The position numbers were made by a program, and so were the translations under genes. This document shows positions 1,186 through 20,124 of a stretch of 64,000 bases of DNA, in pieces. This DNA is from an uncultured Thermoplasmata archaeon. GTDB lineage: Archaea; Thermoplasmatota; Thermoplasmata; Halarchaeoplasmatales; Halarchaeoplasmataceae. Within the stretch, counting starts at the first letter, position 1. Every line of letters begins with the position of its first letter. Below the pieces are notes generated by a model. That model was not told where the DNA came from and made no database searches. It worked only from the letters and a program-made list of their open reading frames with translations. The stretch covers positions 2,660 to 66,659 of the forward strand of contig CAZAMQ010000001.1 in assembly GCA_964486225.1 (NCBI GenBank), in the 5' to 3' direction.

Positions 1186-3384
1186 CTAAAAATATCTACC
1201 GCGGCGTTCAGGAATATAATTATCGCTATCTCTATCAATTATTTTCCTTATTTTACCAATATATTCATTTTCTAGAGATTCTAGTTCATTACAATCTTTC
1301 ATGTTTTTACTTTCTTCAATAAATTCTTGTACTTTACCAAATATTTTTCCTTTCGTACTATGACTACCTAACAGGAAATGTTTATTTTCTGAAAATATTT
1401 TGAATAAATGAATTATAAATTCAATACTCATAAAAAGAAATTCATAATCAGAATTCTTAGTTACTCTCTCTCTTGCCTTTTTATTAAGACTTCCAGACCT
1501 AGAACCGTTCCGTAAAAGTTTTTTGCAAATAACCCAAATGATACTTTCACTTTTTATGAGTTTGCTATATTTTGATTCTTCAAGATCTTCTTTTGACTTA
1601 GAAAGTTCACTTTTAGGAATGTCCTTACGTTGTTTGGAATCAATTAAAAATATTTTATCATTAAGTTGAAGTGCACCATCAGTTTCATTAGCACCCCCTC
1701 CAGATAAATAATTGCCGAATAGATATCTCATCAATACATTAATGTGATCCTCGATCTCGTATCCTGCCCTCTTTTCATCCGCAAATCTTTCTCTAAATCC
1801 ATCTGGGTCGAAGTAATAATCCTCAAGTATCTTTATAGATCGACGAGATTCCTTTTCAACCATGAGTTGTTGATGATATTTAAACTGTCTTTGAGATGCT
1901 TTAACTATATATTCTATAACTTCTTCAGAACCTTTCGCTGTCAAAATTTTGTGATAATTCACTCGGGGTAAAATAACATTGTATATTTTATCGAATTTGT
2001 TGAACTGAGTTCTTGTAGCAAGGATGACTTTATAGAAACGCCGGTGTTCATCTGAAGGATCATCTGAATATGACTTAAGTATCAATGTTATTTTGTCTCC
2101 CAAACTTTTATCGTAATCTACTGATGTTATCCTATATTCCCTTCCTTCCAATTGTATATCACTCCTTTCTGAATTTTTCAAAATGTTATATATCTCCTCT
2201 GTTAGTTTATCTTTGTTTATATCTATAGATTCACCACCATTAACTTTCAGAATATCCTTTTCATAAAGAATTTCCAACCCTGATTCTTTAGACATTTCTT
2301 CTAGTGGTTGTAAATATTTAATTCTATAGTTAGAATTAGTGGTGAGAAGTTTATTTATGTAAAAGGAAGATGGTTTATAGTAAGGTTCATATACTTCAAT
2401 ATCATTTTTTTTCAGAATCGTTTCAATTTCATCTCTATATTTTTCGTATTCGTCTGGTAGTTCTAAAGCTATCTTTATGAATTCTTGATTTCCTTCAATT
2501 CTTTTGAATGTTTGAAAGTTCAATTTAAATTCTACATCTTCTTCTTTTTTAACATAAGTAAATGTACATTCATTTATTGACAATATATCCTGTTTATCGT
2601 GAAGGAGAAGATCATAATCTACGAAATCTTGTATATCGATAGGTGTTTCCTTTCCGGACGATACATTAAGAGAAATATCACAATTGTACGATGACAGTTT
2701 AATTTTCCTTAAAAAAATATCTTGGCTTTTCAAATTTGAAATGAAACTTGGTTTGATCTTCAATTCCTCATATTCTTCGGGTTCTTCGTCCTCAAGTTTT
2801 ATTGCGTCCATTTTTTCTGTATTACGTATAAATCTGCTTCTTTGGGTTTTGTTCCCAGATAAAAGTAATTGGTTATTGTCTTTATCTATTTCAATAAGTA
2901 AGGGCGGGTAAAATTCTATCTCTTCTGGTTTAAACATATCTGTATATTCTCTAGTTTTTATATGCCCCCCATATATTATTTTTGGATTTGTACCGTCTTT
3001 CAAAACTATATTGTTCCCCCTTCCTATATCCTCCAAAAAAGATTCAATATCAGTTGTTTCCTCAAACTTCTTAACATCATTTTTTCTAAAACCTTTTTTG
3101 AACCTAATTTTCAGTAAATCTTCGATGTATTGTCTAAAATTTTCCGCAGAATATGTTGGTTTATTTTCATTGAAAGATTCGGCGACTAGGTCAGAAATTC
3201 CATCCCAAAATTCCTCATTTTTCGTATCTACTTTCTCATATTTTCTTTGCAACTTTTGAATTGATGTATCATTTCTTTTGAAAACATTTTTTGCTGAAAT
3301 AAAGATTTTAGCATTTTTAGTGCAAAAGAGGAGAGGTAATATTCTATCTTTAAGATATTCTTTTTCTAACTGGTCTGGTTTCAT
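1186..3384 (-). CDS. Large orphan lysine/glutamate-rich protein (~733 aa from the MKPDQ start; the ORF extends to 3441). No recognisable catalytic motif (no P-loop). There is a possible weak D...EFK PD-(D/E)xK-like segment. It is the third gene of a coupled operon.
   Basis: Long uninterrupted ORF on the minus strand. The internal ATG at 3384 lies 1 nt after the stop of the upstream 93-aa gene (stop 3386-3388, ATG 3382-3384), implying translational coupling. I recognise no conserved family motif. Confidence 0.5.
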   Translation of the reverse strand: MKPDQLEKEYLKDRILPLLFCTKNAKIFISAKNVFKRNDTSIQKLQRKYEKVDTKNEEFWDGISDLVAESFNENKPTYSAENFRQYIEDLLKIRFKKGFRKNDVKKFEETTDIESFLEDIGRGNNIVLKDGTNPKIIYGGHIKTREYTDMFKPEEIEFYPPLLIEIDKDNNQLLLSGNKTQRSRFIRNTEKMDAIKLEDEEPEEYEELKIKPSFISNLKSQDIFLRKIKLSSYNCDISLNVSSGKETPIDIQDFVDYDLLLHDKQDILSINECTFTYVKKEEDVEFKLNFQTFKRIEGNQEFIKIALELPDEYEKYRDEIETILKKNDIEVYEPYYKPSSFYINKLLTTNSNYRIKYLQPLEEMSKESGLEILYEKDILKVNGGESIDINKDKLTEEIYNILKNSERSDIQLEGREYRITSVDYDKSLGDKITLILKSYSDDPSDEHRRFYKVILATRTQFNKFDKIYNVILPRVNYHKILTAKGSEEVIEYIVKASQRQFKYHQQLMVEKESRRSIKILEDYYFDPDGFRERFADEKRAGYEIEDHINVLMRYLFGNYLSGGGANETDGALQLNDKIFLIDSKQRKDIPKSELSKSKEDLEESKYSKLIKSESIIWVICKKLLRNGSRSGSLNKKARERVTKNSDYEFLFMSIEFIIHLFKIFSENKHFLLGSHSTKGKIFGKVQEFIEESKNMKDCNELESLENEYIGKIRKIIDRDSDNYIPERRGRYF

Positions 3385-3385
3385 G

Positions 3386-3667
3386 TTAACGCACCTCAAT
3401 ATATTCGTTAATTCTCTTCTTGGTTTCTGTGTACATCTCATTATAATTTTGTTGATCGTTAATTAGTATATGTCTATGACAGTATCCTCTTAAGTGTATC
3501 CTGTGGCGTTTCGGTATATCGCCTTTAACCATTTTCATAAAATTTAGAAATTCATTATTTCTGTTGTTGTTATACTCTATATGTTGTTTATAGATTTCAA
3601 ATAGTTGTTTTTCGTTGTCCTTGATTATTTGCTTTAACTGTTCATCATCTTCCCATATTTTTTCCAT
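3386..3667 (-). CDS. Small hypothetical protein (93 aa), the middle gene of the three-gene minus-strand operon.
   Basis: ORF flanked by 1-nt gaps to both neighbours: upstream stop at 3669-3671 versus ATG 3665-3667, downstream as above. Charged and lysine-rich, with no motif recognised. Confidence 0.4.
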   Translation of the reverse strand: MEKIWEDDEQLKQIIKDNEKQLFEIYKQHIEYNNNRNNEFLNFMKMVKGDIPKRHRIHLRGYCHRHILINDQQNYNEMYTETKKRINEYIEVR

Positions 3668-3668
3668 T

Positions 3669-4049
3669 TTAATCCCTCTTTATTTGGTTTTCCAAATTTT
3701 CTGTGTGTGTATCTAACTCTTCTGTTAAATTTATAATTTTTATAGCTATTTTTTGAGCTGTTTTATTTCTCATTCTTCTTGTAGTGTGTTGAACCGATCC
3801 TTCCTGAACTTTGCCAAAACGATCGATGACCGGATCTCGTTTATTTAAATCAGATTTAATTTCATCCCATCTATCTTGAAATTCGCGAGGAAAATCATCA
3901 CTATTAAGAACAAACAGGTCATTCAAATAAGCATCTCTGACTCTTTCTCGAACATTGCTTTCATTTGTGGCCAACGTATCACAAGCAAGATGCAATCTAC
4001 TTATCGTATACCTATATTTTTGAACCATTTCTTCTATTGTCATGTCCAT
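3669..4049 (-). CDS. Small hypothetical protein (126 aa), the first gene of the three-gene minus-strand operon.
   Basis: ORF with ATG at 4049 preceded by a long AT-rich non-coding leader (4050-4700). No motif recognised. Confidence 0.4.
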   Translation of the reverse strand: MDMTIEEMVQKYRYTISRLHLACDTLATNESNVRERVRDAYLNDLFVLNSDDFPREFQDRWDEIKSDLNKRDPVIDRFGKVQEGSVQHTTRRMRNKTAQKIAIKIINLTEELDTHTENLENQIKRD

Positions 4050-4807
4050 CTAATTTCATACGGTAATATAATTGATATATATTTAAAGTTGCCTAACTTT
4101 GGGACATTTGTAGCTAAGTTAATTTAAATAAATATGAAAAATGTAGTATTATGGTCAATCTACCCATTATTAGTATCGGAATTTACGTAATTGCGATTAT
4201 AGCTAAAATCTTCACATATTTACAAAATAAACGTTGGAAAGAAAAAATTCCGGCATATCAAATGTTTTTCGAAGTGAGTGTACCCCAAGGCTAAAGCCAT
4301 TGGGACATATTGAGATAACTTGTTCTCTCGAAAACAGGAACTATGTTCCAGTGGATTGAGGGAACTTGTTCCCTAAAGAGTTGTAATCAGGATTCCGACG
4401 TACTCTATTGTTGTCAGGCAAAGTCCTTTAGATATTTCAGGAAAATCGATTTATTTTCCTGATATCGAAGGAATTCTATGATAATTTCTATAGAGAAGTT
4501 TGAGGAGTTCTTGAAGATCGGTATAATCTTTTTGATATGGCGAGTGAATTACTCGGAATATCTATGTAGTGGTGAGATTGAAATACATATCCAATAGAAG
4601 TCCTGTATAGGAATCCAGCTATGATAGATGAGTTGGAGAAGGTTGTCCACTTCCTTCTAACGAGTACATCTACGATGTACGAGTGTGAAGAATTTTGATT
4701 CCATACAACCCAAACATAAAAGGTTGGGGAATTAGGGTTAAGGCAGGTTTATTAAATCATATTGTTTGGTATAATCATCTACATATTGTTCTAAATAACG
4801 GTTATTT

Positions 4808-5615: not shown

Positions 5616-7019
5616 GTGATAGTTATGAGTAAAGAGGGACCCCTGGATGTAAAAATAGAAAAAGCGATTAGAAAGTCATCTCCGTCAAAAAAATCTACCT
5701 TCGATTTGATTAATAATTTCCTTTCTAATCGAGATTTGAACATATTTTTTAATCATTTGTCAACAAATCAACATTATAAGCAATTGTTGTTCCTTCATCG
5801 TTACGATTTGTTTGATCTTGAGGATGAAATGTTACCTTTGTATTTTCACCTTTGCAGCTTATCGATGGGTGAAAGTGAATTGGCGACACAAATAGAAGAC
5901 CCAACTCTAGAATATGTGATATCGAAAGAGAGTGAAGCTATAAGCAACGGTATGGTTTTTTTACAAAATTTATTAGCTTTAGATGAAGGTCAATGGGATA
6001 TATTCTTGGAGGACATAATGGATGTGGTGGCTTATTTATCAATCTATTTTATCAGATATAATCAGAATATTAAAAATCTAGTTAATGCTGAAATATTTGA
6101 CTACGAGACTATGAAAGCCGTTTTAAAAAGTTACGAGAATACTATTAATTTCAGCTCATTTATTGAGGAAACGGTATCCGCATTAGAAACTGACCAAGAT
6201 GTAATAGATCCGATTATAAAAGAAAAAATATTTAAACTACTTACACAGGTCTTCTCGGGGTTCAGAAAAAACCTGAATCTTCTAATAGAAGATACTGATA
6301 AATTTTTACCAAATTTCAAATTAACTTATCATTTATCATCTAGTATATTGATAAAAAAACTTCTATCGCTATCGGGCCTATCCTTTAATGAATATACAAA
6401 ATTTCTTGATGAACTATATCGAAATCGTTTGATCGAAAATAAAAGTACGATATTTTGGTGTGAAAATTGTAGTCTTGAGAATCCATCTTATTCGGAACAT
6501 CATGGCAGAATCGCACCTTCAAAAATATCTCGAAATAACTGTTTGTATTGTAATCAACCACAATCTTATGCATCTATATTTTCGATAGATACAACTTTAA
6601 AGGAGGCTATACTTTCTAAGGATGGCCTTTTGTCTGTTTATCTCGGTTGGTTATTAAAAAAAGAGGGTATCAAGTTTGAAGTTGGTGGATATACCGCTAA
6701 ATTTGAAAATGATTTCGTTATCGATAATTCTATTCTGGTAGAGTGTAAGATGTTTAAATCCAACAAAGATCGAGTTGCGATACGTTCTAATTTGGATAGT
6801 TGTTTTTCTCAAATTAAAAAGCATATCAAACAGTTAGAAAAAGAGGGAACAAAAATACAAAGAGCATATCTTGTTTGGAATCGAAGAGAAACAGAAAAAG
6901 AAATCCAGAATAAACTGGAATCCAAATATATGGAATTGTTTAGAAAATATAGTTTAAAAATCATATGCCCAGATAAGATAGAAGAACTTGTTGAGGTGAT
7001 AAAATCCTATGATCGATAG
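5616..7019 (+). CDS. Zn-ribbon + PD-(D/E)xK nuclease-like protein (467 aa).
   Basis: Central CxxC-x25-CxxC (CENCS...CLYCN). The C-terminal segment GGYTAKFENDFVIDNSILVECKMFK gives a D-x(6)-E-C-K pattern (nt ~6711-6758), typical of restriction-endonuclease-fold nucleases. 47 bp upstream of the next gene. Confidence 0.55.
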   Translation: MIVMSKEGPLDVKIEKAIRKSSPSKKSTFDLINNFLSNRDLNIFFNHLSTNQHYKQLLFLHRYDLFDLEDEMLPLYFHLCSLSMGESELATQIEDPTLEYVISKESEAISNGMVFLQNLLALDEGQWDIFLEDIMDVVAYLSIYFIRYNQNIKNLVNAEIFDYETMKAVLKSYENTINFSSFIEETVSALETDQDVIDPIIKEKIFKLLTQVFSGFRKNLNLLIEDTDKFLPNFKLTYHLSSSILIKKLLSLSGLSFNEYTKFLDELYRNRLIENKSTIFWCENCSLENPSYSEHHGRIAPSKISRNNCLYCNQPQSYASIFSIDTTLKEAILSKDGLLSVYLGWLLKKEGIKFEVGGYTAKFENDFVIDNSILVECKMFKSNKDRVAIRSNLDSCFSQIKKHIKQLEKEGTKIQRAYLVWNRRETEKEIQNKLESKYMELFRKYSLKIICPDKIEELVEVIKSYDR

Positions 7020-7066
7020 GACTGTAATATATTATATCATTAACCCCCCTCAAAAGAGACATTGGG

Positions 7067-9973
7067 ATGTTGAAAATGAATGAAGAAGATTGCTTGAATG
7101 AATATGAAGATTTAAAGGATCTTTATACTGACTTCTCCATGGTAATTCGTACAATAATAGAGAACATTTTATACACAAATGACATAAATTATCAAGTTGT
7201 AACTAATAGGACGAAAAACGATGAATCTTTAAAACGCAAAGTTAAAGAAATCACCGACATTCACTCTGTAAGAGATATAGACGATCTAGCTGGTTGTAGA
7301 ATAATTTTCTATACGAACAAGGATACACAACGAATTGTTGGATATTTATGTGAAGAATTTGACGTTGTTAAAGAAAATTTAAAATATTCTGAAAAGAGTT
7401 ATAATGCTCTACATCTAGTTGTTAGATTAAAAGAAGATCGATTAAAGCTTTGTGAATACGAGATGTTTGATGGGCTTAAATGTGAAATTCAATTAACAAC
7501 AGTATTATTCCACGCATGGTCTGAGCTTGCACATGATTTAATCTATAAGCCTAAAGAAGATCTTTCTAAATTTGATGAACATGCATTTGATTCAATTGAA
7601 GCTCGATTTCGCAAGACAATGGGGGAACTAAAAAGGGTTCAAACGGATTTTGATTATATCATAAAGCAGTGGAAAGAAATTAGAAAAGGAAAAAAAATTT
7701 TTTCTGAAGAATTTCTATATGATCTGGAATCAGCAGGTTCTATTAATGATATTCAACAAAAGTTAAAACTCATTTTAGAACACGTTGAAAAATTTGGTGA
7801 TAAAACACCAAAAGAATTACAAATAATCGAAATAATTAACAACGCTCTAAAAAAATCAAAAACACTCAAAAAAGAACCTATCAAAACTCTTTTTGGTGAA
7901 CACCCAGGATTTGATTATTCCGATGTAGCTGATGTTAGTTTGGACATCTTCGATCGTTTGAAATATATTTATCCAAAAGATGTTTTTGATGAAATAAAAT
8001 GTTTATCTGTTGATTCAGAAGAAAAAGTTAAAAATAAAGCATTAGATGTTTCTTCAAAAATTGTTAAATATTCATTTGTACCAGAAAATGAAGCAATTTA
8101 CTATCATATCCAATCATTTGTCACCGAAGAAATTGAAAATTGGGACGATGAAACATTGCTTAGATATTTCAATCTAACAGTAAAGGTATCCGATGAGTTG
8201 CTTTCCCCTTCGTTTCACACTGTTTTGCCTAGTGGGTATGATAAAATTTCTTTATACCAAGGCCCACTACCTCCAAACGACACATTAATAAGAATAAGAG
8301 AAAGAACAATATGTATTCTTAAACGGCTATATACTATATCTGAAACTCTCTCGAACAAACACAAAGTTTTAAAGACGCTCAAAAAAGCAACCCTAACACC
8401 CAATGAAGAAGATTATTCGCCAGAATTAAAAAGGGTTATTTTGGATAATACAAATGATGTAATATCTTTTTACATATACCTTGTCGAAGATTCTGATAAT
8501 GAAATAATTCAGATTATTGAGCAACAATTGAACGGTTTTATAAAAAGATTTAAAGATGATTTGATATATTCGGATAAATTAAATGAAATGATTAGTAAAA
8601 ACGAGGATTATAAGGTACACAAAGTACTTGTGGGTTGGGATATTAACTACTTCAATGACTATCAATATGAAAAGGCAGAAATCGAGAGAAAACAAAAAAT
8701 TAATGAATATGTAACACAGATTAACGAAGAGTGTATTAATGATTGGGAAAATAAATTTTTATCTATTCTAAAAAATTACAATCAAGTTAACTCTCGAAGC
8801 GAATATCGGTATCTTAGATATTTCTTAGAAAATTTGGGTGAACAAAAACCTCGGATTGGGTTTGAACTAGCCTTAAAAATAGATTTTGAACTAGGACCTT
8901 TTTTGGACAGTCTAGTAACTGGTATTTGGAAAAGCCCCGAAAAGGATTTGGCTAAGGAATTATTGTCACGTTGGATAAAGGAAGGAAAGCATTTGTCAAC
9001 GTGTCCAAATGTATTCTCTCATACTCATGAAACCGACCTCACATTGTTATCTATGTGTTATGAAAAGGCGAAAGAGCAAAAAGATATTGATGTTATTATT
9101 GGTATCGTAATATGCATTTCAATAAACTATGACCAAAATCCAGACCATAAAACCATATTTATTAATTGCATCAAAGAACTAAATAAATATGGAAATTATA
9201 TATGGACAAATTGTTTTATCCACAATGATAATTCTATATTAAGAGACATTGACAAAATAGACCTAGATGTACTTTTAGAAAATTTCAAATATGCTCCGAG
9301 AATTGATCATGATTTGGAATTAATATTATCGGAATTTGCACACCAATATCCTGGAGAGATAATCGACTTTTTTTATGAAAGAATTAAAGTGCAAAGAGAA
9401 AAAGATGGAAATGATAGATATCATGCAATACCTTTTTCATTACATATTTTAAATGAATCCTTAAGTAAAAATCCTGTGAAAGTTATCGACGAAATTTTGA
9501 AATGGTTTGATATCGAAGATAGATTATTATGTATTGAATGGGCTAATTTAATTGAATTGATTTTCCCGGAGTTTCATCCTGAACTAGAAGATAAATTAAT
9601 CAAATTACTACGATCTAAAGATGATAAAATAGAGATTATTGTTTTGTGTATCTTACGCGCATATGATGGTCAAAAATTTTTACACGAAGTTTGTAAAGAG
9701 TTTATCAAGCAATGCCCTGAGAAAAAGGAGTATCAACAAGAAATGTTCTTAATACTTTCTGGAACAGTTGGTGGTTTTGGTGAATACGCAATTTGTGAAT
9801 CTTATAAAAAGAAAAGAAGAGAGATTCAGGAATGGAAAAAAGATGAAAATATCGCAATTCAAAAATTTGCTATACTGTATGATCGCTATTTATCTAGTAT
9901 GATAAACTACGAAAAAAAGAGAGTAGATGAAAGTGTTGAATTTATGAAAAGAGAATTTGAAACTCATGGCTGA
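7067..9973 (+). CDS. RelA/SpoT-domain (nucleotide pyrophosphokinase / alarmone-synthetase fold) protein. The synthetase-like domain is at aa ~28-165, followed by a ~800-aa alpha-helical C-terminal extension of unknown function.
   Basis: All three hallmark synthetase motifs are seen directly: RxKxxxSxxxK as R48-TKNDESLKRK-58, DxxGxR as DDLAGCRIIF (aa 72-81), and the EIQ(I/L)T...W(A/S)ExxH..YK block as CEIQLTTVLFHAWSELAHDLIYK (aa 139-161). No HD hydrolase, TGS or ACT regions are recognisable. Confidence 0.7.
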   Translation: MLKMNEEDCLNEYEDLKDLYTDFSMVIRTIIENILYTNDINYQVVTNRTKNDESLKRKVKEITDIHSVRDIDDLAGCRIIFYTNKDTQRIVGYLCEEFDVVKENLKYSEKSYNALHLVVRLKEDRLKLCEYEMFDGLKCEIQLTTVLFHAWSELAHDLIYKPKEDLSKFDEHAFDSIEARFRKTMGELKRVQTDFDYIIKQWKEIRKGKKIFSEEFLYDLESAGSINDIQQKLKLILEHVEKFGDKTPKELQIIEIINNALKKSKTLKKEPIKTLFGEHPGFDYSDVADVSLDIFDRLKYIYPKDVFDEIKCLSVDSEEKVKNKALDVSSKIVKYSFVPENEAIYYHIQSFVTEEIENWDDETLLRYFNLTVKVSDELLSPSFHTVLPSGYDKISLYQGPLPPNDTLIRIRERTICILKRLYTISETLSNKHKVLKTLKKATLTPNEEDYSPELKRVILDNTNDVISFYIYLVEDSDNEIIQIIEQQLNGFIKRFKDDLIYSDKLNEMISKNEDYKVHKVLVGWDINYFNDYQYEKAEIERKQKINEYVTQINEECINDWENKFLSILKNYNQVNSRSEYRYLRYFLENLGEQKPRIGFELALKIDFELGPFLDSLVTGIWKSPEKDLAKELLSRWIKEGKHLSTCPNVFSHTHETDLTLLSMCYEKAKEQKDIDVIIGIVICISINYDQNPDHKTIFINCIKELNKYGNYIWTNCFIHNDNSILRDIDKIDLDVLLENFKYAPRIDHDLELILSEFAHQYPGEIIDFFYERIKVQREKDGNDRYHAIPFSLHILNESLSKNPVKVIDEILKWFDIEDRLLCIEWANLIELIFPEFHPELEDKLIKLLRSKDDKIEIIVLCILRAYDGQKFLHEVCKEFIKQCPEKKEYQQEMFLILSGTVGGFGEYAICESYKKKRREIQEWKKDENIAIQKFAILYDRYLSSMINYEKKRVDESVEFMKREFETHG

Positions 9974-10047
9974 ATGATTGGAAATACGAGTGTTTAGATT
10001 AAGATATCGGATTATTAGAAGGTTATAACTAAATATACATCCTCTCC

Positions 10048-10743
10048 TCACTGTATGTTTTCCTTAACCCTCTCCCTCCGCTCCTCATTCGGAGGATGGA
10101 ACTGAACCCCTAGCATTTTCAAATACGCTCTTGCAACCCCCTTCTCGATCTTAAACCCCAACGCCTCCTTGTTCTCATCAGAAACCCGGGATAACGTCGT
10201 TTCGTAATCGATCCCATCGATGATCTCCAGTGCTTCATAGGCAACATCCCAGGGGTTTTTGATGTTGCAGGCCTCCTGCATCATCTTTGCGGCCCAGAGA
10301 TCGCATTTGTTTTCGATGTCCCAATTTCCCTTGTATGTGAACTTGGGGCTGATCAATGCTATGGCGGTGAAGATGATGAAGGCAGAGATGGGGTATATTC
10401 CGCTCATGTTCAATATGTACACGGGTACGTAATAAGAGATCACTGCTATCGTGAGGAAGAAGATGAGGAGGTTGAATAGAGCGTTCTTTTTCAGAGGATA
10501 TCTCGATAAGTGTGCTTCTTCGTGTAGTAGTGCGAAGGTGATGTGTTCTTTTTTTAGTTCCTTCAGATCGTTGAAATACGGGTTGTAAAGGATCGCACTG
10601 GTGCCGGCTTTGAATGACTTTGTTTTTAACGGTGCCTGGACCAGTTTTCTGTTTTTGTCGATCAGGTATCGTTTGTTTTTATCCGATGATGCTTCGGTGT
10701 TTTGAAGCTGTGTAAATATCTCTCTGATCCTATCGTTTTTCAT
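10048..10743 (-). CDS. Membrane-associated HExxH zinc-metallopeptidase-like protein (231 aa).
   Basis: LLHEEAHL motif followed by 2-3 hydrophobic helices. The gene is conspicuously GC-richer (~50 %) than the flanking AT-rich DNA. Confidence 0.45.
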   Translation of the reverse strand: MKNDRIREIFTQLQNTEASSDKNKRYLIDKNRKLVQAPLKTKSFKAGTSAILYNPYFNDLKELKKEHITFALLHEEAHLSRYPLKKNALFNLLIFFLTIAVISYYVPVYILNMSGIYPISAFIIFTAIALISPKFTYKGNWDIENKCDLWAAKMMQEACNIKNPWDVAYEALEIIDGIDYETTLSRVSDENKEALGFKIEKGVARAYLKMLGVQFHPPNEERRERVKENIQ

Positions 10744-11146: not shown

Positions 11147-12220
11147 GATATGTCACCCCTCTATTGAGAAGGTAGAAGTATCTTCTCCAATTTAAGTGCT
11201 TTGACGAGCTTGTCAAACCATTTGAGATCTACCTCACCAGAATATTTATCCTCCGGACAAGTATCTATTGCCGAATGATGCTTTCCGTTATTGTACCAAT
11301 GGTTGTAAATTCGGATGAATTTATCGATCTTAGTTCTGTTCCTTGAATTACCAATGTGATGTCTAAGGAAACGCTTCAGACCTTTTTGATATGCACTTAG
11401 CTTTCCGAGTGTTTGTGGATGGTGTATACTAGACCATATATGCTTTTGATTGACGTATTCAGAACAGTATTTTCTCATCTCATTATTCTTTCTGTTGAAT
11501 TGTGTCCCATTATCAGTGAGAAGATTATCATACTTTGTTTTGATTAACTTTTTCATCCCCTGGATAACAGTCTTATCTTTTGCATCTCTTAAAGATACAG
11601 CCCATCCTTTTCTAGAATGGTCGTCTTCCATTGTTAGAAGGGAGACGCCATTAAATGAAGTCAGATCTGCCTGTATCAAACGGTTTGGATGTCCCCATTC
11701 AAACCGTTTCCAATCGTTTTGAACACGTCTCTCACGTTCGATCTCACCTTCTCTTACGAGGATATTGTAAGTAAGAGAGGGATATAGACGTTTAGTCATA
11801 CCAGCTCTTTGTAAACTTTGATTGACAATGTCTGATACTGGTTTTGGTCCAAAACCGGTAGCTTTCCTTACAGCTATGACTTTATCTTCGATTTCTTTGG
11901 GAGTTTTATTAGGTATTCTTTTTGGCCGTTTTGATTTAAAACGCAATCCTGCAATCCCTTCCTCCCGAAATCTCTTTAGAATCCTGTAAAATTGTCGAAG
12001 ACTTCGACCGATCATCTCAGATGCTTTTTTACGAGTGATTCCAAAAGGCTTAGGGACTAGTGTTTTCGCAACAGCTCCGTAACGTTCTTTCACATAGCTT
12101 GGCTCATCCTTGAGAACATCGATGTGTTCCCTATCCAAATATATACTTCCTCTTTCTATTATCATTTCGTGTCACCTCTTTGTTGGTGAGTTTATCATTC
12201 CGACAAAGGGGTGACACATC
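11147..12220 (-). mobile_element. IS481-family insertion sequence (~1.07 kb) with 14-bp imperfect terminal inverted repeats (GATATGTCACCCCT / AGGGGTGACACATC).
   Basis: IRs at 11147-11160 and 12207-12220 match 13 of 14 positions and bracket a single DDE transposase ORF. The termini begin with TGT, as in IS481/IS3-like elements. No target-site duplication is discernible. Confidence 0.75.
11161..12165 (-). CDS. IS481-family DDE transposase (rve integrase core).
   Basis: N-terminal HTH region. IQADLT resembles the WQxD first catalytic aspartate motif. TDNGTQF is the classic rve TDNG(x)EF motif. HPQTLGKLSAYQKGLK is the HPQTxGkxER motif. Length 334 aa. Confidence 0.85.
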   Translation of the reverse strand: MIIERGSIYLDREHIDVLKDEPSYVKERYGAVAKTLVPKPFGITRKKASEMIGRSLRQFYRILKRFREEGIAGLRFKSKRPKRIPNKTPKEIEDKVIAVRKATGFGPKPVSDIVNQSLQRAGMTKRLYPSLTYNILVREGEIERERRVQNDWKRFEWGHPNRLIQADLTSFNGVSLLTMEDDHSRKGWAVSLRDAKDKTVIQGMKKLIKTKYDNLLTDNGTQFNRKNNEMRKYCSEYVNQKHIWSSIHHPQTLGKLSAYQKGLKRFLRHHIGNSRNRTKIDKFIRIYNHWYNNGKHHSAIDTCPEDKYSGEVDLKWFDKLVKALKLEKILLPSQ

Positions 12221-12762: not shown

Positions 12763-14112
12763 ATGGATTACACCGAGTATAAAGGTAAATGGTGGCTCCC
12801 AGGTAAAGAGTATAATAAGATATTTGGAACATTGAAATTCTACCCAAATGATCGTTTGGAACTTGAAGTTAATGGTATTTTTGAATCACTACCTTTTGGT
12901 CGGCTGATTGAATTCACCCAGTATGATTTCATTTATGGGGAAGATTACAATGGTAAAAAAATTACATTATTTAAAAATAGAGAAACGTATAGAAGTAAAG
13001 ATATTGAATCCCGATATTTAGTTGTATATGCATTCATAGGACATCACTTTGTTAATGAAAAAGAAATATCTTTCGATGAGATAGAAATCAATTTTCATAA
13101 TCTTAAAGAATGGTTTGGTTTGTCAGGAATTGGTTATGAATATGATGATGTAAGTTTTGCCTATCGATATACCGAGCAAGACATTATTAAAAATAATATT
13201 GATGGCGAATATGAGTTGAATTTTATTTTCGGCTGTCCTTGTGAAATGAAAGGTACAGGTCCTACAGAGATATATTTAAAGGATGAATGTTCTCTAGAAA
13301 TTAAGAAACATTTCGAAAAATCTCTTGATCGATATTTTGAAATAATAGAAATGCTCAAAGTATTTTTTTCTTTATCGATGCAATTACCTATTTATATGAC
13401 TAACATGAATGGAGTGGTTAGCGACGAAGGACCCTGTTGTAATATTTTATTTGGAGATATCCGAGATGAAAAAGATTTACAAAAAGTTCATAAATTCCAA
13501 ATGCCATTAATTTATGATAGAATCTCAGAAGAATTTGAAGGTGTTTTAAAAAACCTTCACAGATCCTACCATAAATTTGAAAACATGTTTAATTTGTACC
13601 ATGGCATAATATACAATCAAAATATGTTTCCAAGACAAGAATTTTTATTTTTGGTTAATGCATTAGAATCATATCATCGTTTGTGGCTAAAAGACAAATA
13701 CATCTCTGATGAAGATTTTAAAAATAAAGTTTACAATAAGTTAGTTGACGCGATACCGGATGATATCCCTGTAGATTTGAAAAATAGTTTGAAGTCAAGG
13801 TTACAATATCACAATGAATACTCCCTCAAGAAAAGATTGGATGAAGTTTTTGAAAGGTTTATAGAACCTATTGATTTTATAATAGAGAATCGAGATGATT
13901 TTACAAACAGAGTCAAAAATATGCGAAATTATTATTCACATTATTTTGAACTTGAAGAAGAAATAACCTTTGAAGAATTAAATAATATTAAAGAAAAATT
14001 GAAAACCATCGTAGAAATTTGTATCCTTGGGGAAATAGATGTAGATCTGGCAAACGATTTGGAAATAGTTGATAAATTATACAAAAATAAAAGAAAATTC
14101 ATAAGTTTTTGA
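12763..14112 (+). CDS. HEPN-domain protein of the Abi_2 (AbiD/AbiF) / ApeA-like abortive-infection type (449 aa).
   Basis: C-terminal MRNYYSHYF (nt 13921-13947) matches the Rx4-6H HEPN signature in its RNxxxH form, which is characteristic of Abi_2. Large alpha-helical protein inside an AT-rich accessory island. Confidence 0.55.
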   Translation: MDYTEYKGKWWLPGKEYNKIFGTLKFYPNDRLELEVNGIFESLPFGRLIEFTQYDFIYGEDYNGKKITLFKNRETYRSKDIESRYLVVYAFIGHHFVNEKEISFDEIEINFHNLKEWFGLSGIGYEYDDVSFAYRYTEQDIIKNNIDGEYELNFIFGCPCEMKGTGPTEIYLKDECSLEIKKHFEKSLDRYFEIIEMLKVFFSLSMQLPIYMTNMNGVVSDEGPCCNILFGDIRDEKDLQKVHKFQMPLIYDRISEEFEGVLKNLHRSYHKFENMFNLYHGIIYNQNMFPRQEFLFLVNALESYHRLWLKDKYISDEDFKNKVYNKLVDAIPDDIPVDLKNSLKSRLQYHNEYSLKKRLDEVFERFIEPIDFIIENRDDFTNRVKNMRNYYSHYFELEEEITFEELNNIKEKLKTIVEICILGEIDVDLANDLEIVDKLYKNKRKFISF

Positions 14113-15130: not shown

Positions 15131-15563
15131 ACCACTTATGAGATCGGTGAATATCTTTAAAATTGTGAATACGCTGGGAAAGCAACGCTTTAAAACTCCA
15201 CCCAACCTCCACATCTTCGCAAAAGTCAGCAGATGCCTGCCGAATTTCACACGCAAATTTCGGCAGTTCCACACCTCATCCAGTGATCCATAATCGCCGA
15301 ATATCTCCAAAAAGAGCAAGATCAGACGCTCTTACATTCTTTTTGTGCAATCTTTTCAGAAAACTAAAAGTTTTCTAAACGATATCGGGAACGAGTTCCC
15401 GAAATAAAGTCGGCAGTTTTCACAAGAGTTATCGCAAAAGTCGGCAGGTGAATATTTCGGGAATCAAATTCCCGATATCGAAGGAATTTTTCTCAAAATT
15501 CCTGTAGATCACGTGCAAAAGGTAGCAGTTAGCAGCCACCTTTCATAACTCGTTTGAGAGGTA

Positions 15564-15978: not shown

Positions 15979-16914
15979 ATGAAAGTAAGACTCAATGCAC
16001 TTCAGATCGAGATAATGCAGTGCTTGATGAAGAGGGAATACGGAACCCTTAAACAGATATCGCTGGAGCTCGATAAGAGCCAATCCAGGATATCCTCTGT
16101 TGTTAGTGACCTGGAAAATAAGGGATTGGTCGATCTTGAAAAAAAGGGTCTTTCCAAAAAAATTTCCGTTGCAAACAGTAAACACGCATCTATTCTAAAA
16201 AAACTCTTTGCTATGCATCCAGTGGATTTCGAAAACTGCCTGTCAGGATCCGCCCTCGAAGTTCTTCAGCCGATCACTGAAGATGAACTAAGCCGCTCCG
16301 AAGTTTCCAAAAGGTGTGGTTATTCCGAAAGAACGGTGTCCAGGGTTTTTGATCGGATGAGAGAGAGAGGTATGATCGTTGAGGAAAGTGGTCTTTACAG
16401 CATCAATCCCAGATACGCTGCATTATCGGAGTTCATATCGGAATTTCAGTCGTATCTAAACGTTAAAAGATCTCGTTCTTTTTCTCCAACATCCACCATG
16501 ATATGGGAGAGAGGAAAAGAATTTATGGTAGAGACAAGAGAGACGAATGAAGAAGATTATTTTCTTACGGGATATGATAGATTAGCCGACTTCGGTGTAC
16601 CCCTGATAACCACAGGATCACGGTATTACTTTTATACCGAGATGAAAGACGAACTTGTGTTGGAAGATGTGTGCTTACATACACTAATACCCGATATTAG
16701 CAGTACCAGAAACCTCCTTTACGTATTACTGGCGATAGGAAAGAACAGAGTGAATTGGAGTTATCTGAAAATAGAATCTGTAAAATACGGGCTTGAGGAT
16801 ACTGCTGCGGCCCTAAAAGAGTACATGGATAGCCGTGGAAAGAAAAAAGCAAAGTATTTTCCTCCATGGGAAGAATATAAAACCAAGGCCAGGGAGTACG
16901 AGATAGATGTATAG
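15979..16914 (+). CDS. Transcriptional regulator with tandem winged-helix (MarR/Lrp-like) domains and an uncharacterised C-terminal domain (311 aa).
   Basis: Two HTH-like segments (LKQISLELDKSQSRISSVVSDLENKGLV and RSEVSKRCGYSERTVSRVFDRMRERGMIV). Overlaps the downstream gene by 8 nt. Confidence 0.55.
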   Translation: MKVRLNALQIEIMQCLMKREYGTLKQISLELDKSQSRISSVVSDLENKGLVDLEKKGLSKKISVANSKHASILKKLFAMHPVDFENCLSGSALEVLQPITEDELSRSEVSKRCGYSERTVSRVFDRMRERGMIVEESGLYSINPRYAALSEFISEFQSYLNVKRSRSFSPTSTMIWERGKEFMVETRETNEEDYFLTGYDRLADFGVPLITTGSRYYFYTEMKDELVLEDVCLHTLIPDISSTRNLLYVLLAIGKNRVNWSYLKIESVKYGLEDTAAALKEYMDSRGKKKAKYFPPWEEYKTKAREYEIDV

Positions 16915-17275
16915 GAAAACCTTTGGAATAGACTATATGGAACGGGAATTGGAGCGGTTAGGTGAAGCTCTTGATAGTGATGTAAAAATATATCTGATCG
17001 GTGGTGGGCGTATGCTGTATAGAGATGCAAAAGCAGCCACCAAAGATGTTGATATGGTTGTAACTGATCCATCATACTTGACATCGTTATCTTCCGGACT
17101 CAAGAAGCTAGGTTATGGCGAGATCAAAGAACTGCCGGTCGATTATAGAAGCTTGGGTGCATCAATTATTATGAAAAATGAAGACGGATTCCAGTTCGAT
17201 GTATTTTACAAAAAGGTGTGCAACAATCTATCGGTCGGTGAGAGGATGGTGACTTTGCTCCCATTTTCTCCATAA
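16907..17275 (+). CDS. Minimal nucleotidyltransferase (Pol-beta superfamily / MNT-like) protein (122 aa).
   Basis: IYLIGGGRMLYRDAKAATKDVDMVV matches the G[GS]-x9-13-DxD NTase signature. Translationally coupled to the upstream regulator. Confidence 0.5.
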   Translation: MYRKTFGIDYMERELERLGEALDSDVKIYLIGGGRMLYRDAKAATKDVDMVVTDPSYLTSLSSGLKKLGYGEIKELPVDYRSLGASIIMKNEDGFQFDVFYKKVCNNLSVGERMVTLLPFSP

Positions 17276-17502
17276 ACTTCCATCTCGAAAGGTGGATCTC
17301 CATATATATAAGAATACTCGTCTTCTGGAACTGAATACACCACGTTCAAATAAGTGGTAGGGGTACTCTGAGGATCACCCGCAGAAAATTCATTACTCCG
17401 AACCTCTATTTTAACAGTTAGTGCACCTTTTATCTCTTCCGATTGGGAAAGGTTTATGTATTGGGCGCACAATTATTGTATAGACAATAAAGGAGAACGA
17501 AC

Positions 17503-18891
17503 ATGAAATTCGTAGATCGAGAACAAGAATTGGATACCTTGAGGAAACTATACCGATCGGATGATTTCGAATTCATCTCACTTATCGGTAGAAGAAGAGT
17601 GGGAAAAACAGAACTGATAAAAGAATTCTTAAAAGAAACAGACGGTATATATATTTACATATCTTTAAGCGATGACAAGCAGCTAAGACTTCACACCGCA
17701 GAAAGATTGAACGAGATACTGGGTTTGAGTCTTGTAGGTGAACCTACATGGAGAGATATCATCGATGCTCTATTCGATAAAAGTGAGAAAAAAAAACTAT
17801 TCGTTGCCATAGACGAATTCCAGAGACTTTTGAATATAAATGAATCAGTGCCTTCACTTCTTCAGGGTGCTATAGACGAGAGAAAAAATTCTTCTAAGAT
17901 GCTGCTGTGCGTAGCTGGTTCCTCCATCGGTATGATGGAAAAATTGTTTCTTTCGGATGCCTCGCTTTACGGACGAAGAACACGTAACATCAAGTTGAAC
18001 CCTTTCGGCTATGAGGATGTGAGGAAATGGTTTGTTCCCCAAGATATGAACGAAGGATCCATATTGAAAAGGTATGCGGTCTTCGGTGGTACTCCTAAAT
18101 ATCTGGAGTTTGCAACAGATGGTTCGCTGATGGATAACATAGACGAACAGATACTTTCGCCCCGTTCATTGCTTTATGACGAGCCCTGGGTCCTTCTTTC
18201 AACCGAATTGAAATCTCCTGATAAGTATTTCGATATCATCAAGCTAGTATCAATGGGGAAGCAAACTCCCAAAATGATATCCGATCAGCTTGATCTCGAA
18301 AGAACTTCGTTAGGATATTATCTGAAAAAACTCCAAAAGGACTTTGATATGCTCGATAGAGTAGCACCCGTCACTGAAAAGATCACAAAAAGCAAGAAAA
18401 AGAGATATCGTATAAAGGACAATTTTTTCCGATTTTGGTTTCATTTTGTGTATCCCAACAAGGATCAACTTGAGATAGGTGATAGAGAGGGTGTAAAAGG
18501 TAAAATAGAATATGAATTCGACGGATACATGGGGAATATCTTTGAAGATGTGATCAGGGAGATCATCAAAAAAAGAAACGGGAACAGATTACTAGATTGG
18601 AGATTGAGGCGTTATGAAAAGATCGGACCTTGGTGGGATCGAAGGGGTGATGAGATCGATATCTGCGGTATATCGAAGGATGGATATCTCCTGGGGGAAG
18701 TCAAGTGGAGCTTATCCGATAAGAGAGATGTAAAAAAACTGCTGGAGAAGATGAGAAATTCTAAATTTGATCACGATCCACAATATATGATAGTATCCAG
18801 AGAGTTCACACCCGATGCAAAAGAATATTTGCGCCAAGAAGACGTAATACATTTTACTCTCCGAGATTTTCCGGAGATATGGTCTCTCTAG
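17503..18891 (+). CDS. Archaeal ATPase (Arch_ATPase AAA+ domain with C-terminal DUF234-like region).
   Basis: N-terminal FVDREQELDTLRKL...LIGRRRVGKTEL (Walker A) and DEFQ (Walker B) in the arrangement typical of PF01637. Length 462 aa. Confidence 0.8.
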   Translation: MKFVDREQELDTLRKLYRSDDFEFISLIGRRRVGKTELIKEFLKETDGIYIYISLSDDKQLRLHTAERLNEILGLSLVGEPTWRDIIDALFDKSEKKKLFVAIDEFQRLLNINESVPSLLQGAIDERKNSSKMLLCVAGSSIGMMEKLFLSDASLYGRRTRNIKLNPFGYEDVRKWFVPQDMNEGSILKRYAVFGGTPKYLEFATDGSLMDNIDEQILSPRSLLYDEPWVLLSTELKSPDKYFDIIKLVSMGKQTPKMISDQLDLERTSLGYYLKKLQKDFDMLDRVAPVTEKITKSKKKRYRIKDNFFRFWFHFVYPNKDQLEIGDREGVKGKIEYEFDGYMGNIFEDVIREIIKKRNGNRLLDWRLRRYEKIGPWWDRRGDEIDICGISKDGYLLGEVKWSLSDKRDVKKLLEKMRNSKFDHDPQYMIVSREFTPDAKEYLRQEDVIHFTLRDFPEIWSL

Positions 18892-18896
18892 TTATT

Positions 18897-19184
18897 CTAT
18901 CCAAAGGAGTCATCGGCTTGGATTGTTCTTTCTCTATATAGTCCACCAGTTCCTCTTCGATCACGCCTTTCAAAGATATTCCAGATGGATCCGTCTTCTT
19001 GTATGGCCTTCTCCAATATCTCTGTAAAATAGAATTCGGGATGATCGAAACCCCACCCGCAAGCGAAGGATTCCTCCCATTCAAAACCAGGCGAATCATG
19101 AAAATTCGCTAGGTATTCCAGGGCCTCGATGGGTATGCTTTCGACGCCTTCGTTATGTCTGGGTGAACTATAAGAATATATCAA
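18897..19184 (-). CDS. Possible small acidic protein (95 aa). Weak call.
   Basis: ORF only, with reasonable composition. Divergent from the fic gene. Confidence 0.2.
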   Translation of the reverse strand: MIYSYSSPRHNEGVESIPIEALEYLANFHDSPGFEWEESFACGWGFDHPEFYFTEILEKAIQEDGSIWNIFERRDRRGTGGLYRERTIQADDSFG

Positions 19185-19236
19185 TTATCGATGTGTAATC
19201 AGATAACTATTTATAGGAAATATGACTAAATTCTAA

Positions 19237-20124
19237 ATGATGCGACTAAACATATTACAGCAGATGAGATCCCAACTGCTGGAAAGAACTTCCATCAAAG
19301 ATCTACCGGAACTGGTATGGAAGCGAAGTGGAGCTCTAAACACCTGGGGTACCAACGCCATTGAGGGCAGCACCATCGGACGGAAGGATGCAGAGAAGTT
19401 ACTGCTGGATGACACAACTCCCGCAGGAAAACCCGTGAAAGATGTTAGAGAAACGCTCCAGCACCAGGAGGCTTTCAGAGAGTTACCGGAATACGGAAAA
19501 ATAAACATGGAAAACATATTGGAAATGCATGAAACAGTATTTCGAGGTACTCTGGAGGATGCGGGACAGTGGAGAAGAGTTAATGTACGTATCACCGGGG
19601 CTAAATTCACACCACCTAGGATGGAAAAGGTAAGAGAAGAGATAAGTAGATGGGTGGACGAATACCATCAAAGAGACCTGGAAGGAGATGATGTTTTCAC
19701 TCTTGCAGCATGGATGCATTATGAACTCGAAAGGGTCCATCCCTTTGCAGACGGTAACGGCCGTATAGGAAGATTGCTCTTGAATCTGCATTTTATCAAC
19801 AGGAATTGGCCGCCGGTACACGTACTCCCGGCTCATCGAAATAAATACATAGATTCGTTGAACGACTATGCAGACGGTGATACCAAAAGTCTTGAAGATT
19901 TTTTAAAGATAAGGATGGGCGCAAGCCTGTTGGACCTGTTGGACCAGCTCGGCACAGCGGAGGACGAGATGATATCACTCAAGGATGCAGAAACTCCCTA
20001 CGAAGAAAAATACCTGGCTCTCAGGTGTAAACAGGGCGAGATACCCGCATTAAAGGAGGGACGGGAATGGAGGGTGAGTAAAAGAGCTTTGAGATTGTAC
20101 ACCGAGACGGTGGGAAGGAAGTGA
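19237..20124 (+). CDS. fic: Fic/Doc-family protein (filamentation induced by cAMP; AMPylation-type fold).
   Basis: Canonical Fic motif HPFADGNGRIGR (nt 19738-19773), i.e. HPFx(D/E)GNGR. Confidence 0.85.
   Translation: MMRLNILQQMRSQLLERTSIKDLPELVWKRSGALNTWGTNAIEGSTIGRKDAEKLLLDDTTPAGKPVKDVRETLQHQEAFRELPEYGKINMENILEMHETVFRGTLEDAGQWRRVNVRITGAKFTPPRMEKVREEISRWVDEYHQRDLEGDDVFTLAAWMHYELERVHPFADGNGRIGRLLLNLHFINRNWPPVHVLPAHRNKYIDSLNDYADGDTKSLEDFLKIRMGASLLDLLDQLGTAEDEMISLKDAETPYEEKYLALRCKQGEIPALKEGREWRVSKRALRLYTETVGRK

Follow-up and report, generated by a model that had tools for sequence, protein, structure and literature searches.

A RelA/SpoT synthetase domain fused to a large predicted alpha-solenoid in an uncultured archaeon

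What a synthetase from the superfamily of RelA/SpoT homologs (RSH) does in an archaeon, and what the very long extension that it carries is for, are the questions raised by one gene of an uncultured Thermoplasmata archaeon. The gene lies in a stretch of 64,000 nucleotides, here called the window (assembly GCA_964486225.1, contig CAZAMQ010000001.1, positions 2,660 to 66,659 of the forward strand), where a complete and uninterrupted open reading frame (ORF) at 7067..9973 on the + strand encodes a 968-aa fusion of an RSH synthetase (SYNTH) domain to a C-terminal module predicted to be an alpha-solenoid. To our knowledge, the stringent response has not been established in archaea. We propose, with a probability of about 60%, that this RSH-solenoid gene encodes a self-contained, single-polypeptide conflict protein of the immune or abortive-infection type. 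The proposal builds on the predicted fold, the conservation of the catalytic residues, the sharing of the solenoid with nucleases, the absence of a partner gene and a patchy, mobile distribution, from which we infer toxicity, autoinhibition, the sensing of a trigger and a role in defense.

The synthetase domain and its catalytic residues

The original prediction, made from the letters of the DNA alone, had described a synthetase-only RSH protein with intact catalytic residues and an extension of unknown fold, and it is supported with minor corrections. The SYNTH domain is real: an N-terminal helix and an alpha/beta core of nucleotidyltransferase-like fold span aa 1-170 (7067..7576, + strand), the Pfam family RelA_SpoT matches aa 48-164 above its gathering score (E=5.2e-13, 49.7 bits; cutoff 27), and solved structures of RelP/RelQ are matched by sequence at 1e-6 with the single protein and at 7e-14 with the family profile. 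These properties, together with the catalytic and substrate-binding residues described below, place the domain in the RSH superfamily. No HD (hydrolase), TGS or ACT domain was detectable by profile or by fold anywhere in the 968-aa protein, a cryptic HD domain included, which separates it, as predicted, from the long RSHs (Rel/RelA/SpoT) with their N-terminal HD and C-terminal TGS/ACT/RRM domains.

The conservation of individual residues was counted in an alignment of 99 full-length homologs with 24-55% identity, and the alignment to RelP/RelQ showed that the catalytic Asp and Glu had been correctly numbered and assigned and are not substituted. In the basic track R48-x-K50-x3-S54-x3-K58 (7208..7240, on the + strand like all the motifs that follow), which by its conservation and its alignment to RelP/RelQ would bind the phosphates of the donor ATP, R48 and K50 are invariant (99/99), and S54 and K58 are kept in at least 90% of the homologs (90/99 and 94/99, respectively). 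The motif D73-L-A-G-C-R78 (7283..7300) would supply the Mg2+-coordinating Asp and the second adenine-stacking Arg. D73 and R78 are present in 99/99 homologs and G76 in 97/99; D72, which had been named alongside D73 as catalytic, is an Asp in just 73/99, which leaves D73 as the Asp that is conserved in D-x-x-G-x-R. It aligns with D90 of FaRel2, which coordinates Mg2+ and whose substitution abolishes activity, while R48 and R78 align with R79 and R116 of CapRel, the pair that stacks the donor adenine (PMC9712102).

Further along, the 'G-loop' Y112-N-A-L-H116 (7400..7414) aligns to GYRSLH of RelP, and its Tyr (96/99, Phe in the other 3) would stack on the base of the pyrophosphate acceptor, as do the essential Y128 of FaRel2 and Y155 of CapRel with which it aligns; H116 is kept in 95/99. 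The catalytic Glu belongs to E140-I-Q-L-T-T (7484..7501), which aligns to EIQIRT, the canonical motif of small alarmone synthetases, in RelP/RelQ (E140 98/99, Q142 99/99, T145 98/99), and the core ends with E153-x2-H156-D-x2-Y160-K161 (7523..7549; E153 and H156 99/99, Y160 98/99, K161 97/99). The acceptor-stacking Tyr and the basic pocket that the literature describes are both kept. Judging from these alignments, the catalytic site is complete, and strong purifying selection acts on it across the 99 homologs.

A catalytically dead pseudoenzyme or scaffold that merely retains the RSH fold would be compatible with EIQLTT standing in place of EIQIRT and with the unusual acidity of the window copy, whose SYNTH domain has an isoelectric point (pI) of 4.9 and a net charge of -10 (family median pI 8.8, range 4.9-9.5) and whose module has a pI of 5.2 and a net charge of -29 (family median pI 9.0). 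However, the donor-binding, metal and acceptor-stacking residues are invariant or nearly so across very divergent homologs, which would not be expected of a dead enzyme, and with so little support this is the least probable of the readings that we considered. A halophilic host was also considered as the cause of the acidity but found no support, as the host proteins are of mixed pI (4.8-9.3) with a normal Lys content; the host proteome within the window is unlike that of an extreme halophile.

The best match of the SYNTH domain in sequence and in structure, with all catalytic motifs aligned, is RelP/RelQ, the housekeeping (p)ppGpp synthetases of Firmicutes (PMC3153485). This closeness, the kept acceptor-stacking Tyr and the basic pocket would suit a physiological enzyme, a 'large' small alarmone synthetase (SAS) that adjusts (p)ppGpp or (pp)pApp levels for signaling when its HEAT-like domain detects a cue from metabolism or stress, with no part in toxicity or conflict. 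However, RelP and RelQ are single-domain proteins of ~210-230 aa, whereas the present protein has 968 aa, departs from them in EIQLTT and is horizontally scattered, and the NCBIfam RelQ equivalog GTPPhKinYjbM scores it at 34.4 bits against a cutoff of 320, outside RelP/RelQ membership. The archaeal host also speaks against the physiological explanation: the 2011 survey of RSHs found SASs to be generally small, single-domain proteins and archaeal ones to be sporadic and derived from horizontal gene transfer (PMC3153485). We regard such a role as improbable, and the C-terminal module adds to the case against it.

A solenoid shared with nucleases, in mobile surroundings

An AlphaFold2 model computed on the 99-sequence alignment (mean pLDDT 90.6, pTM 0.75) shows a connecting helix at residues 171-211, within the linker of aa 171-215 (7577..7711, + strand), and then, from about residue 216, where the profile of the module starts, to residue 968, an almost wholly helical region that contains two small beta elements, at aa 272-279 and at 382-400. 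In this model the ~750-aa module (7712..9970, + strand) is made of stacked antiparallel helix pairs that match known solenoids, which would make it a HEAT/ARM-like alpha-solenoid, and a Foldseek search of the whole PDB agrees with the picture of a SYNTH domain followed by an alpha-solenoid. The extension that had been of unknown fold is therefore now confidently predicted for its last ~750 aa. The weak periodicity once noted in it, and taken as HEAT/TPR-like, stands for the predicted structure and not for the sequence: a comparison of the profile with itself by hhalign found no internal repeat (best off-diagonal E=0.2), so the periodicity of the solenoid is structural only. No sequence relatives of the C-terminal region were found among solved structures.

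To follow the module beyond RSH proteins, a profile of aa 216-968 from six diverse members was searched against 1.84 billion representative proteins, giving 1,529 clusters at E<=1e-3, 801 of which reach E<=1e-30. Among the best 150 of the 1,529 clusters, in which the module begins at three different positions, 143 were new beyond the whole-protein search and were classified with home-made profiles: 58 are RSH fusions, 26 are fusions to DUF4365, 50 are module-only proteins of ~745-820 aa and 9 are fragments. The DUF4365 domain at the N-terminus of the second class (~1,030-1,090 aa), confirmed by Pfam and labeled 'Aga_REase' by PADLOC, is restriction-endonuclease-like; DUF4365 is the predicted nuclease that is fused to APAZ in the short-Argonaute (SPARDA) systems.

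The stand-alone module genes also keep company with effectors. All six that could be placed lie directly downstream of an effector-type gene (5 PIN, 1 DUF4365), with a spacing that runs from an 8-nt overlap to a 9-nt gap. The upstream gene is a PIN_12 gene at three metagenomic loci, a gene annotated "PIN domain-containing protein" on both a replicon of Legionella adelaidensis and a plasmid of Pseudanabaena galeata, and a DUF4365 gene on an element with ParA, ParB and a resolvase. These two-gene operons adjoin a type III restriction-modification (R-M) system, an OLD-like ATPase, integrases and recombinases. At the L. adelaidensis locus (L098; NZ_LR134418.1 231949-235370), the gene of the PIN protein WP_058461130.1 ends 2 nt ahead of that of the ~800-aa module protein WP_058461131.1, which is annotated as hypothetical, and the pair adjoins a site-specific integrase. 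The record is labeled a plasmid but includes rpoD, dnaG and rpsU and may be chromosomal.

On a neighbor-joining tree of 133 module sequences, the effector class changes at least 17 times, where the minimum possible is 2 and a random arrangement gives ~58, and the maximum module identity between classes (45-48%) equals that within classes. The conserved chassis has thus changed its effectors many times over. For the physiological explanation this is an awkward result, as a solenoid fused to, or in an operon with, DUF4365 and PIN nucleases would make no sense in alarmone signaling. Three matches of the whole-protein search without a Pfam RelA_SpoT annotation (P0083, P0089 and P0100) were considered as new N-terminal fusions and turned out to be N-terminally truncated copies instead. 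Separately, P0107, an 846-aa match of the whole-protein search, has an N-terminal RelA_SpoT domain, a helical middle and a C-terminal RyR domain (PF02026), so large C-terminal regions of more than one type are joined to RSH effector domains.

Fifteen positions of the module are conserved in all three architecture classes, among them Q349, R411, R541, E751, R772, E906 and K916. R772 (9380..9382, + strand) is the sole module residue that is 100% conserved across the three. Near the C-terminus, G905-E906-Y907-A908 (9779..9790, + strand) corresponds to a 'GEYG' signature, visible in P0165, P0119 and P0133, whose last Gly is Ala in the window copy; in every class, G905 is kept in 97% or more of the sequences and E906 in 88% or more.

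The RSH fusion itself is widely but patchily distributed. With the whole protein as query, ~106 clusters that align over the full length at 24-55% identity were recovered; their sources include Parcubacteria, Saccharibacteria, Actinobacteria, Halobacillus and Helarchaeota. When each species was represented by a single genome, a scan gave at least 576 RSH-fusion loci. The 80 that were retained include Legionella parisiensis (43%), Bacillus sp. AFS088145, Nitrospirota, Promethearchaeota and Methanosarcinales, besides numerous loci of Sphingomonadales, Caulobacterales and Burkholderiales with 22-26% identity. The fusion is therefore scattered over bacteria of the Candidate Phyla Radiation, Legionella, Bacillus, Halobacillus, many Alphaproteobacteria, Asgard archaea and Methanosarcinales. 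Full-length copies reside on plasmids of Rhizobium rhizogenes and Sphingobium, the latter annotated only as "RelA/SpoT domain-containing protein". Phage genomes yielded no full-length homolog and a single short match to the RSH domain.

The annotated neighborhoods differ from one locus to the next. They hold a helix-turn-helix (HTH) protein, an EcoRI-type methylase, T5orf172 and GmrSD in Parcubacteria; AbiE, ResIII and Fic in Helarchaeota; SLATT and a resolvase in Halobacillus; Dcm, Vsr, Mrr, a type ISP R-M system, DUF3800, an integrase and a relaxase elsewhere; and ordinary genes such as uvrB at a locus of the alphaproteobacterial type. The 144 nearest flanking ORFs include an integrase, DnaE2, HipA, Fic, HNH and R-M genes, a TIR effector and an insertion sequence (IS) transposase, besides housekeeping genes, and no Pfam family recurs among them more than 3 times. 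An all-against-all clustering of 838 neighbors from 88 loci revealed no shared partner gene, the largest cluster being a tyrosine integrase at 8/88 loci. A small conserved downstream antitoxin was also sought: the ORFs of 66-113 aa that lie ~300 nt after the gene at several loci proved mutually unrelated. Without a conserved partner, and in a plasmid and integrase context, the RSH fusion behaves as a self-contained unit that moves horizontally. The patchy, acquired distribution and the association with plasmids and integrases again disfavor a physiological SAS, even though ordinary neighbors such as uvrB at some alphaproteobacterial loci would suit one.

The same mobility could be read in another way, namely that the gene is a fused toxin-antitoxin addiction module that stabilizes its mobile element, with the solenoid as a cis-antitoxin, possibly proteolyzed, and no sensing of an invader. 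A single self-contained gene with a toxin-type domain on islands and plasmids, the translational coupling of a toxin-like gene to the module gene in the split versions, and the toxin-antitoxin-type HipA and Fic genes among the neighbors are all in keeping with it. We nevertheless consider it unlikely, since a conserved solenoid of 750 aa is far above the size of any known antitoxin and not obviously labile, and since a module that stays while its effectors are swapped is a hallmark of sensor-effector immune proteins. The boundary between an addiction module and the proposed conflict protein is a soft one, CapRel being a fused toxin-antitoxin and a sensor alike.

Proposed function and its precedents

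A toxic-type enzyme joined to a shared non-enzymatic solenoid, with no partner gene and with signs of mobility, has the architecture of single-protein sensor-effector immunity. Given this architecture, and the precedents of CapRel, FaRel2 and PANGU for RSH effectors in immunity, of DSR2 for a solenoid sensor fused to an N-terminal effector and of Olokun, we propose a pyrophosphokinase that its solenoid silences as long as no trigger has bound. The effector would be the N-terminal RelP/RelQ-like domain, moving pyrophosphate from ATP to the 3'-OH of an acceptor. Were the acceptor a purine nucleotide, (p)ppGpp or (pp)pApp would flood the cell, and ATP and GTP would be drained; were it tRNA, the CCA end would be pyrophosphorylated and aminoacylation blocked. 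We estimate the odds at roughly 50% for a nucleotide, 35% for tRNA and 15% for something else, the nucleotide being mildly favored because the domain is close to RelP/RelQ and because no basic surface is conserved in the family. The ~750-aa solenoid, which has no NTPase, would serve as regulator or sensor and hold the effector inactive until the trigger binds it, as in CapRel and DSR2.

CapRel(SJ46), a fused toxSAS (toxic SAS) toxin-antitoxin that is activated by a capsid protein and modifies tRNA (PMC9712102), offers a close parallel in layout: one polypeptide with an N-terminal RSH pyrophosphokinase and a C-terminal regulatory or sensor region, no separate antitoxin gene, a location on mobile DNA, and a common adenine-stacking Arg pair, Mg-binding Asp and G-loop Tyr. 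It differs in that its antitoxin and sensor domain is a pseudo-zinc finger docking at the ATP site, which is absent here and replaced by a 750-aa alpha-solenoid, and the two proteins align over the toxSYNTH part only. Bicistronic toxSAS toxin-antitoxin systems are set apart by their adjacent antitoxin gene, of which no conserved counterpart exists at the 88 loci. DSR2 (defense-associated sirtuin 2) resembles the present protein in joining an N-terminal toxic enzyme to a long C-terminal alpha-solenoid in a single gene of ~1,000 aa without an NTPase, and its solenoid directly binds the phage tail tube protein (PMC11850899); however, its effector is a SIR2 NADase rather than an RSH, no sequence relationship was detected, and it lies outside the top structural matches.

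In type I PANGU, an RSH effector (Pag1B/GRel) acts in anti-phage immunity by making pppGpp rather than by modifying tRNA, so a nucleotide-directed activity of the RelP/RelQ kind can be the killing step. PANGU differs in having two genes, with the nucleoid-associated Pag1A as sensor, and in the small acidic DNA-mimic domain at the C-terminus of Pag1B. Olokun is similar through its helical-repeat 'adaptin-like' OloA, complexed with the PD-(D/E)xK nuclease OloB. The PADLOC model of OloA matches a portion of the module in the DUF4365-fused P0124 (E=5e-9) and in 2 of the 38 RSH-fused members that were scanned, which suggests that the module and OloA may be distantly related. These matches are sporadic and partial, spanning ~290 of the 596 profile positions, most members of the family fall below the OloA model, and no OloB-like neighbor was found beside the window gene; membership in Olokun was therefore rejected. 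The single-gene PADLOC candidate PDC-S33 matches 29 of the 38 members, including the window protein (E=2e-12), but the match is confined to the RSH domain (profile positions 50-175 of 349), and PDC-S33 is much shorter and has no solenoid.

An exported or contact-dependent antibacterial toxin, in the manner of the type VI secretion effector Tas1, with the solenoid serving for delivery or chaperone binding, would be another use of the same enzyme. Tas1 and the exported SaSAS of Streptomyces are interbacterial RSH toxins and both appear among the structural matches. Little else supports this explanation, and we consider it very improbable.

Several observations weigh against a conflict protein. 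In both sequence and structure searches, the SYNTH domain is nearest to the non-toxic housekeeping RelP/RelQ and not to a known toxSAS. Conservation hardly varies from one end of the module to the other (0.59-0.69; SYNTH, 0.72), a uniformity that a housekeeping regulator would also show; the module has invariant polar residues, and it lacks the hypervariable patch typical of sensors of phage proteins, such as the pseudo-zinc finger of CapRel. Housekeeping genes are the neighbors at many loci, especially in Alphaproteobacteria. PADLOC found no match to the module of the window protein, OloA included at E<=0.01, and no description of an RSH-HEAT protein or of the solenoid module was found in the literature searched. 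The sensor-effector logic and the RSH effector are known, and what is new is the sensor chassis with its set of effectors.

The uniform conservation may also be informative in itself. As the polar core (Q349, R411, R541, E751, R772 and E906) is invariant, the module may sense a conserved cue, which may be, for example, a host-derived signal or a conserved feature of invaders rather than a fast-evolving phage protein. We tentatively extend the proposal, at slightly less than even odds, to the whole family: the solenoid would define a large, previously undescribed and NTPase-free family of sensor-effector immune proteins in bacteria and archaea, a chassis that gates at least three unrelated kinds of toxic enzyme (RSH, DUF4365 and PIN), fused or encoded by a coupled gene upstream, and that may respond to a conserved cue, and the window copy would be an archaeal RSH immune effector.

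If the proposed model holds, RSH immunity would not be limited to small proteins of the CapRel, toxSAS and PANGU types. It would include an architecture of ~970 aa with a wide distribution in bacteria and with archaeal members too, Asgard lineages and relatives of methanogens among them, and a RelP/RelQ-like core would serve as a weapon in organisms without known alarmone signaling. The family would then be a new sensor or regulatory chassis with repeatedly exchanged toxic effectors, and a natural experiment in how a single solenoid can control enzymes as different as a pyrophosphokinase, a nuclease of the DNase type and a PIN RNase. The interest lies mainly in this wider family and in the archaeal setting. 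The even conservation and the invariant polar residues hint at a conserved trigger, for which a search should be less difficult than for a phage protein specific to one strain, and cultured carriers are available both for the RSH fusion (Legionella parisiensis, Halobacillus kuroshimensis, Bacillus sp. AFS088145 and Sphingomonas species) and for the pair of PIN and module genes (Legionella adelaidensis).

The archaeal island

The RSH gene of the window lies in an island, from position 1 to ~16,000, with a GC content of ~30%, while the remaining window has ~49%. An alternative start at 7076 (+ strand) would give a protein of 965 aa, and public protein collections contain both forms, the one of 968 aa and an identical protein from M4 (965 aa). 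In the 47-nt gap upstream of the gene, an AT-rich, TATA-like element, aatatattatatc (7026..7038, + strand), can be read from the sequence; it is a possible archaeal promoter, from which the gene may be transcribed on its own with little or no leader, and its position fits independent transcription of the RSH gene.

The island carries two further candidate defense genes, encoding a TcmP/PDC-M30A protein (27-1019) and a protein with an ApeA N-terminal domain and HEPN/PDC-S58 (12763-14112), as well as an IS481-like transposase (11161-12165, minus strand). A tight cluster of three genes (126, 93 and 751 aa; 1186-4049, - strand) and a 467-aa ORF (5616-7019, + strand) that ends 47 nt before the RSH gene gave no Pfam, NCBIfam or convincing PADLOC match. 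They also flank the RSH gene, identical in sequence, in SRR7048220 (a Logan contig of 9 kb), and they may be further uncharacterized cargo of the island.

A 20-nt direct repeat, TTCC[T/C]GATATCGAAGGAATT, occurs at 4456-4475 and 15469-15488, 19/20 identical and 11 kb apart, with the RSH, transposase and ApeA genes between its two copies. An att-like scar left by an inserted element is one possible origin, chance another. Downstream of the RSH gene are a short C/T-rich stretch (10040-10130) and, at 10048-10743 on the minus strand, a 231-aa ORF without a family match, whose GC content of 45% stands out inside the 30%-GC island; this region may be part of the neighboring IS element or a separate insertion. 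At the edge of the island (15979-20124), a double winged-helix regulator (HVO_2833 C-terminal), an archaeal ATPase_2/DUF234 protein and a Fic-domain protein are encoded by genes with 40-47% GC, between the values of island and core.

The window itself marks its host as an archaeon, since it encodes the primase subunit PriL, an archaeal LonB (855 bits, above the equivalog cutoff), PorA_Arch and an archaeal TldD, and it also has regulators of the HVO_2833/TrmB type; a search against the E. coli genome, a scan for tRNAs and Rfam yielded no matches. It also encodes, at 33294-38516, a very acidic 1,740-aa protein of pI 4.05 and 2.6% Lys plus Arg with Big_5, MAM-like and other Ig-like domains, which is presumably secreted or exposed at the cell surface.

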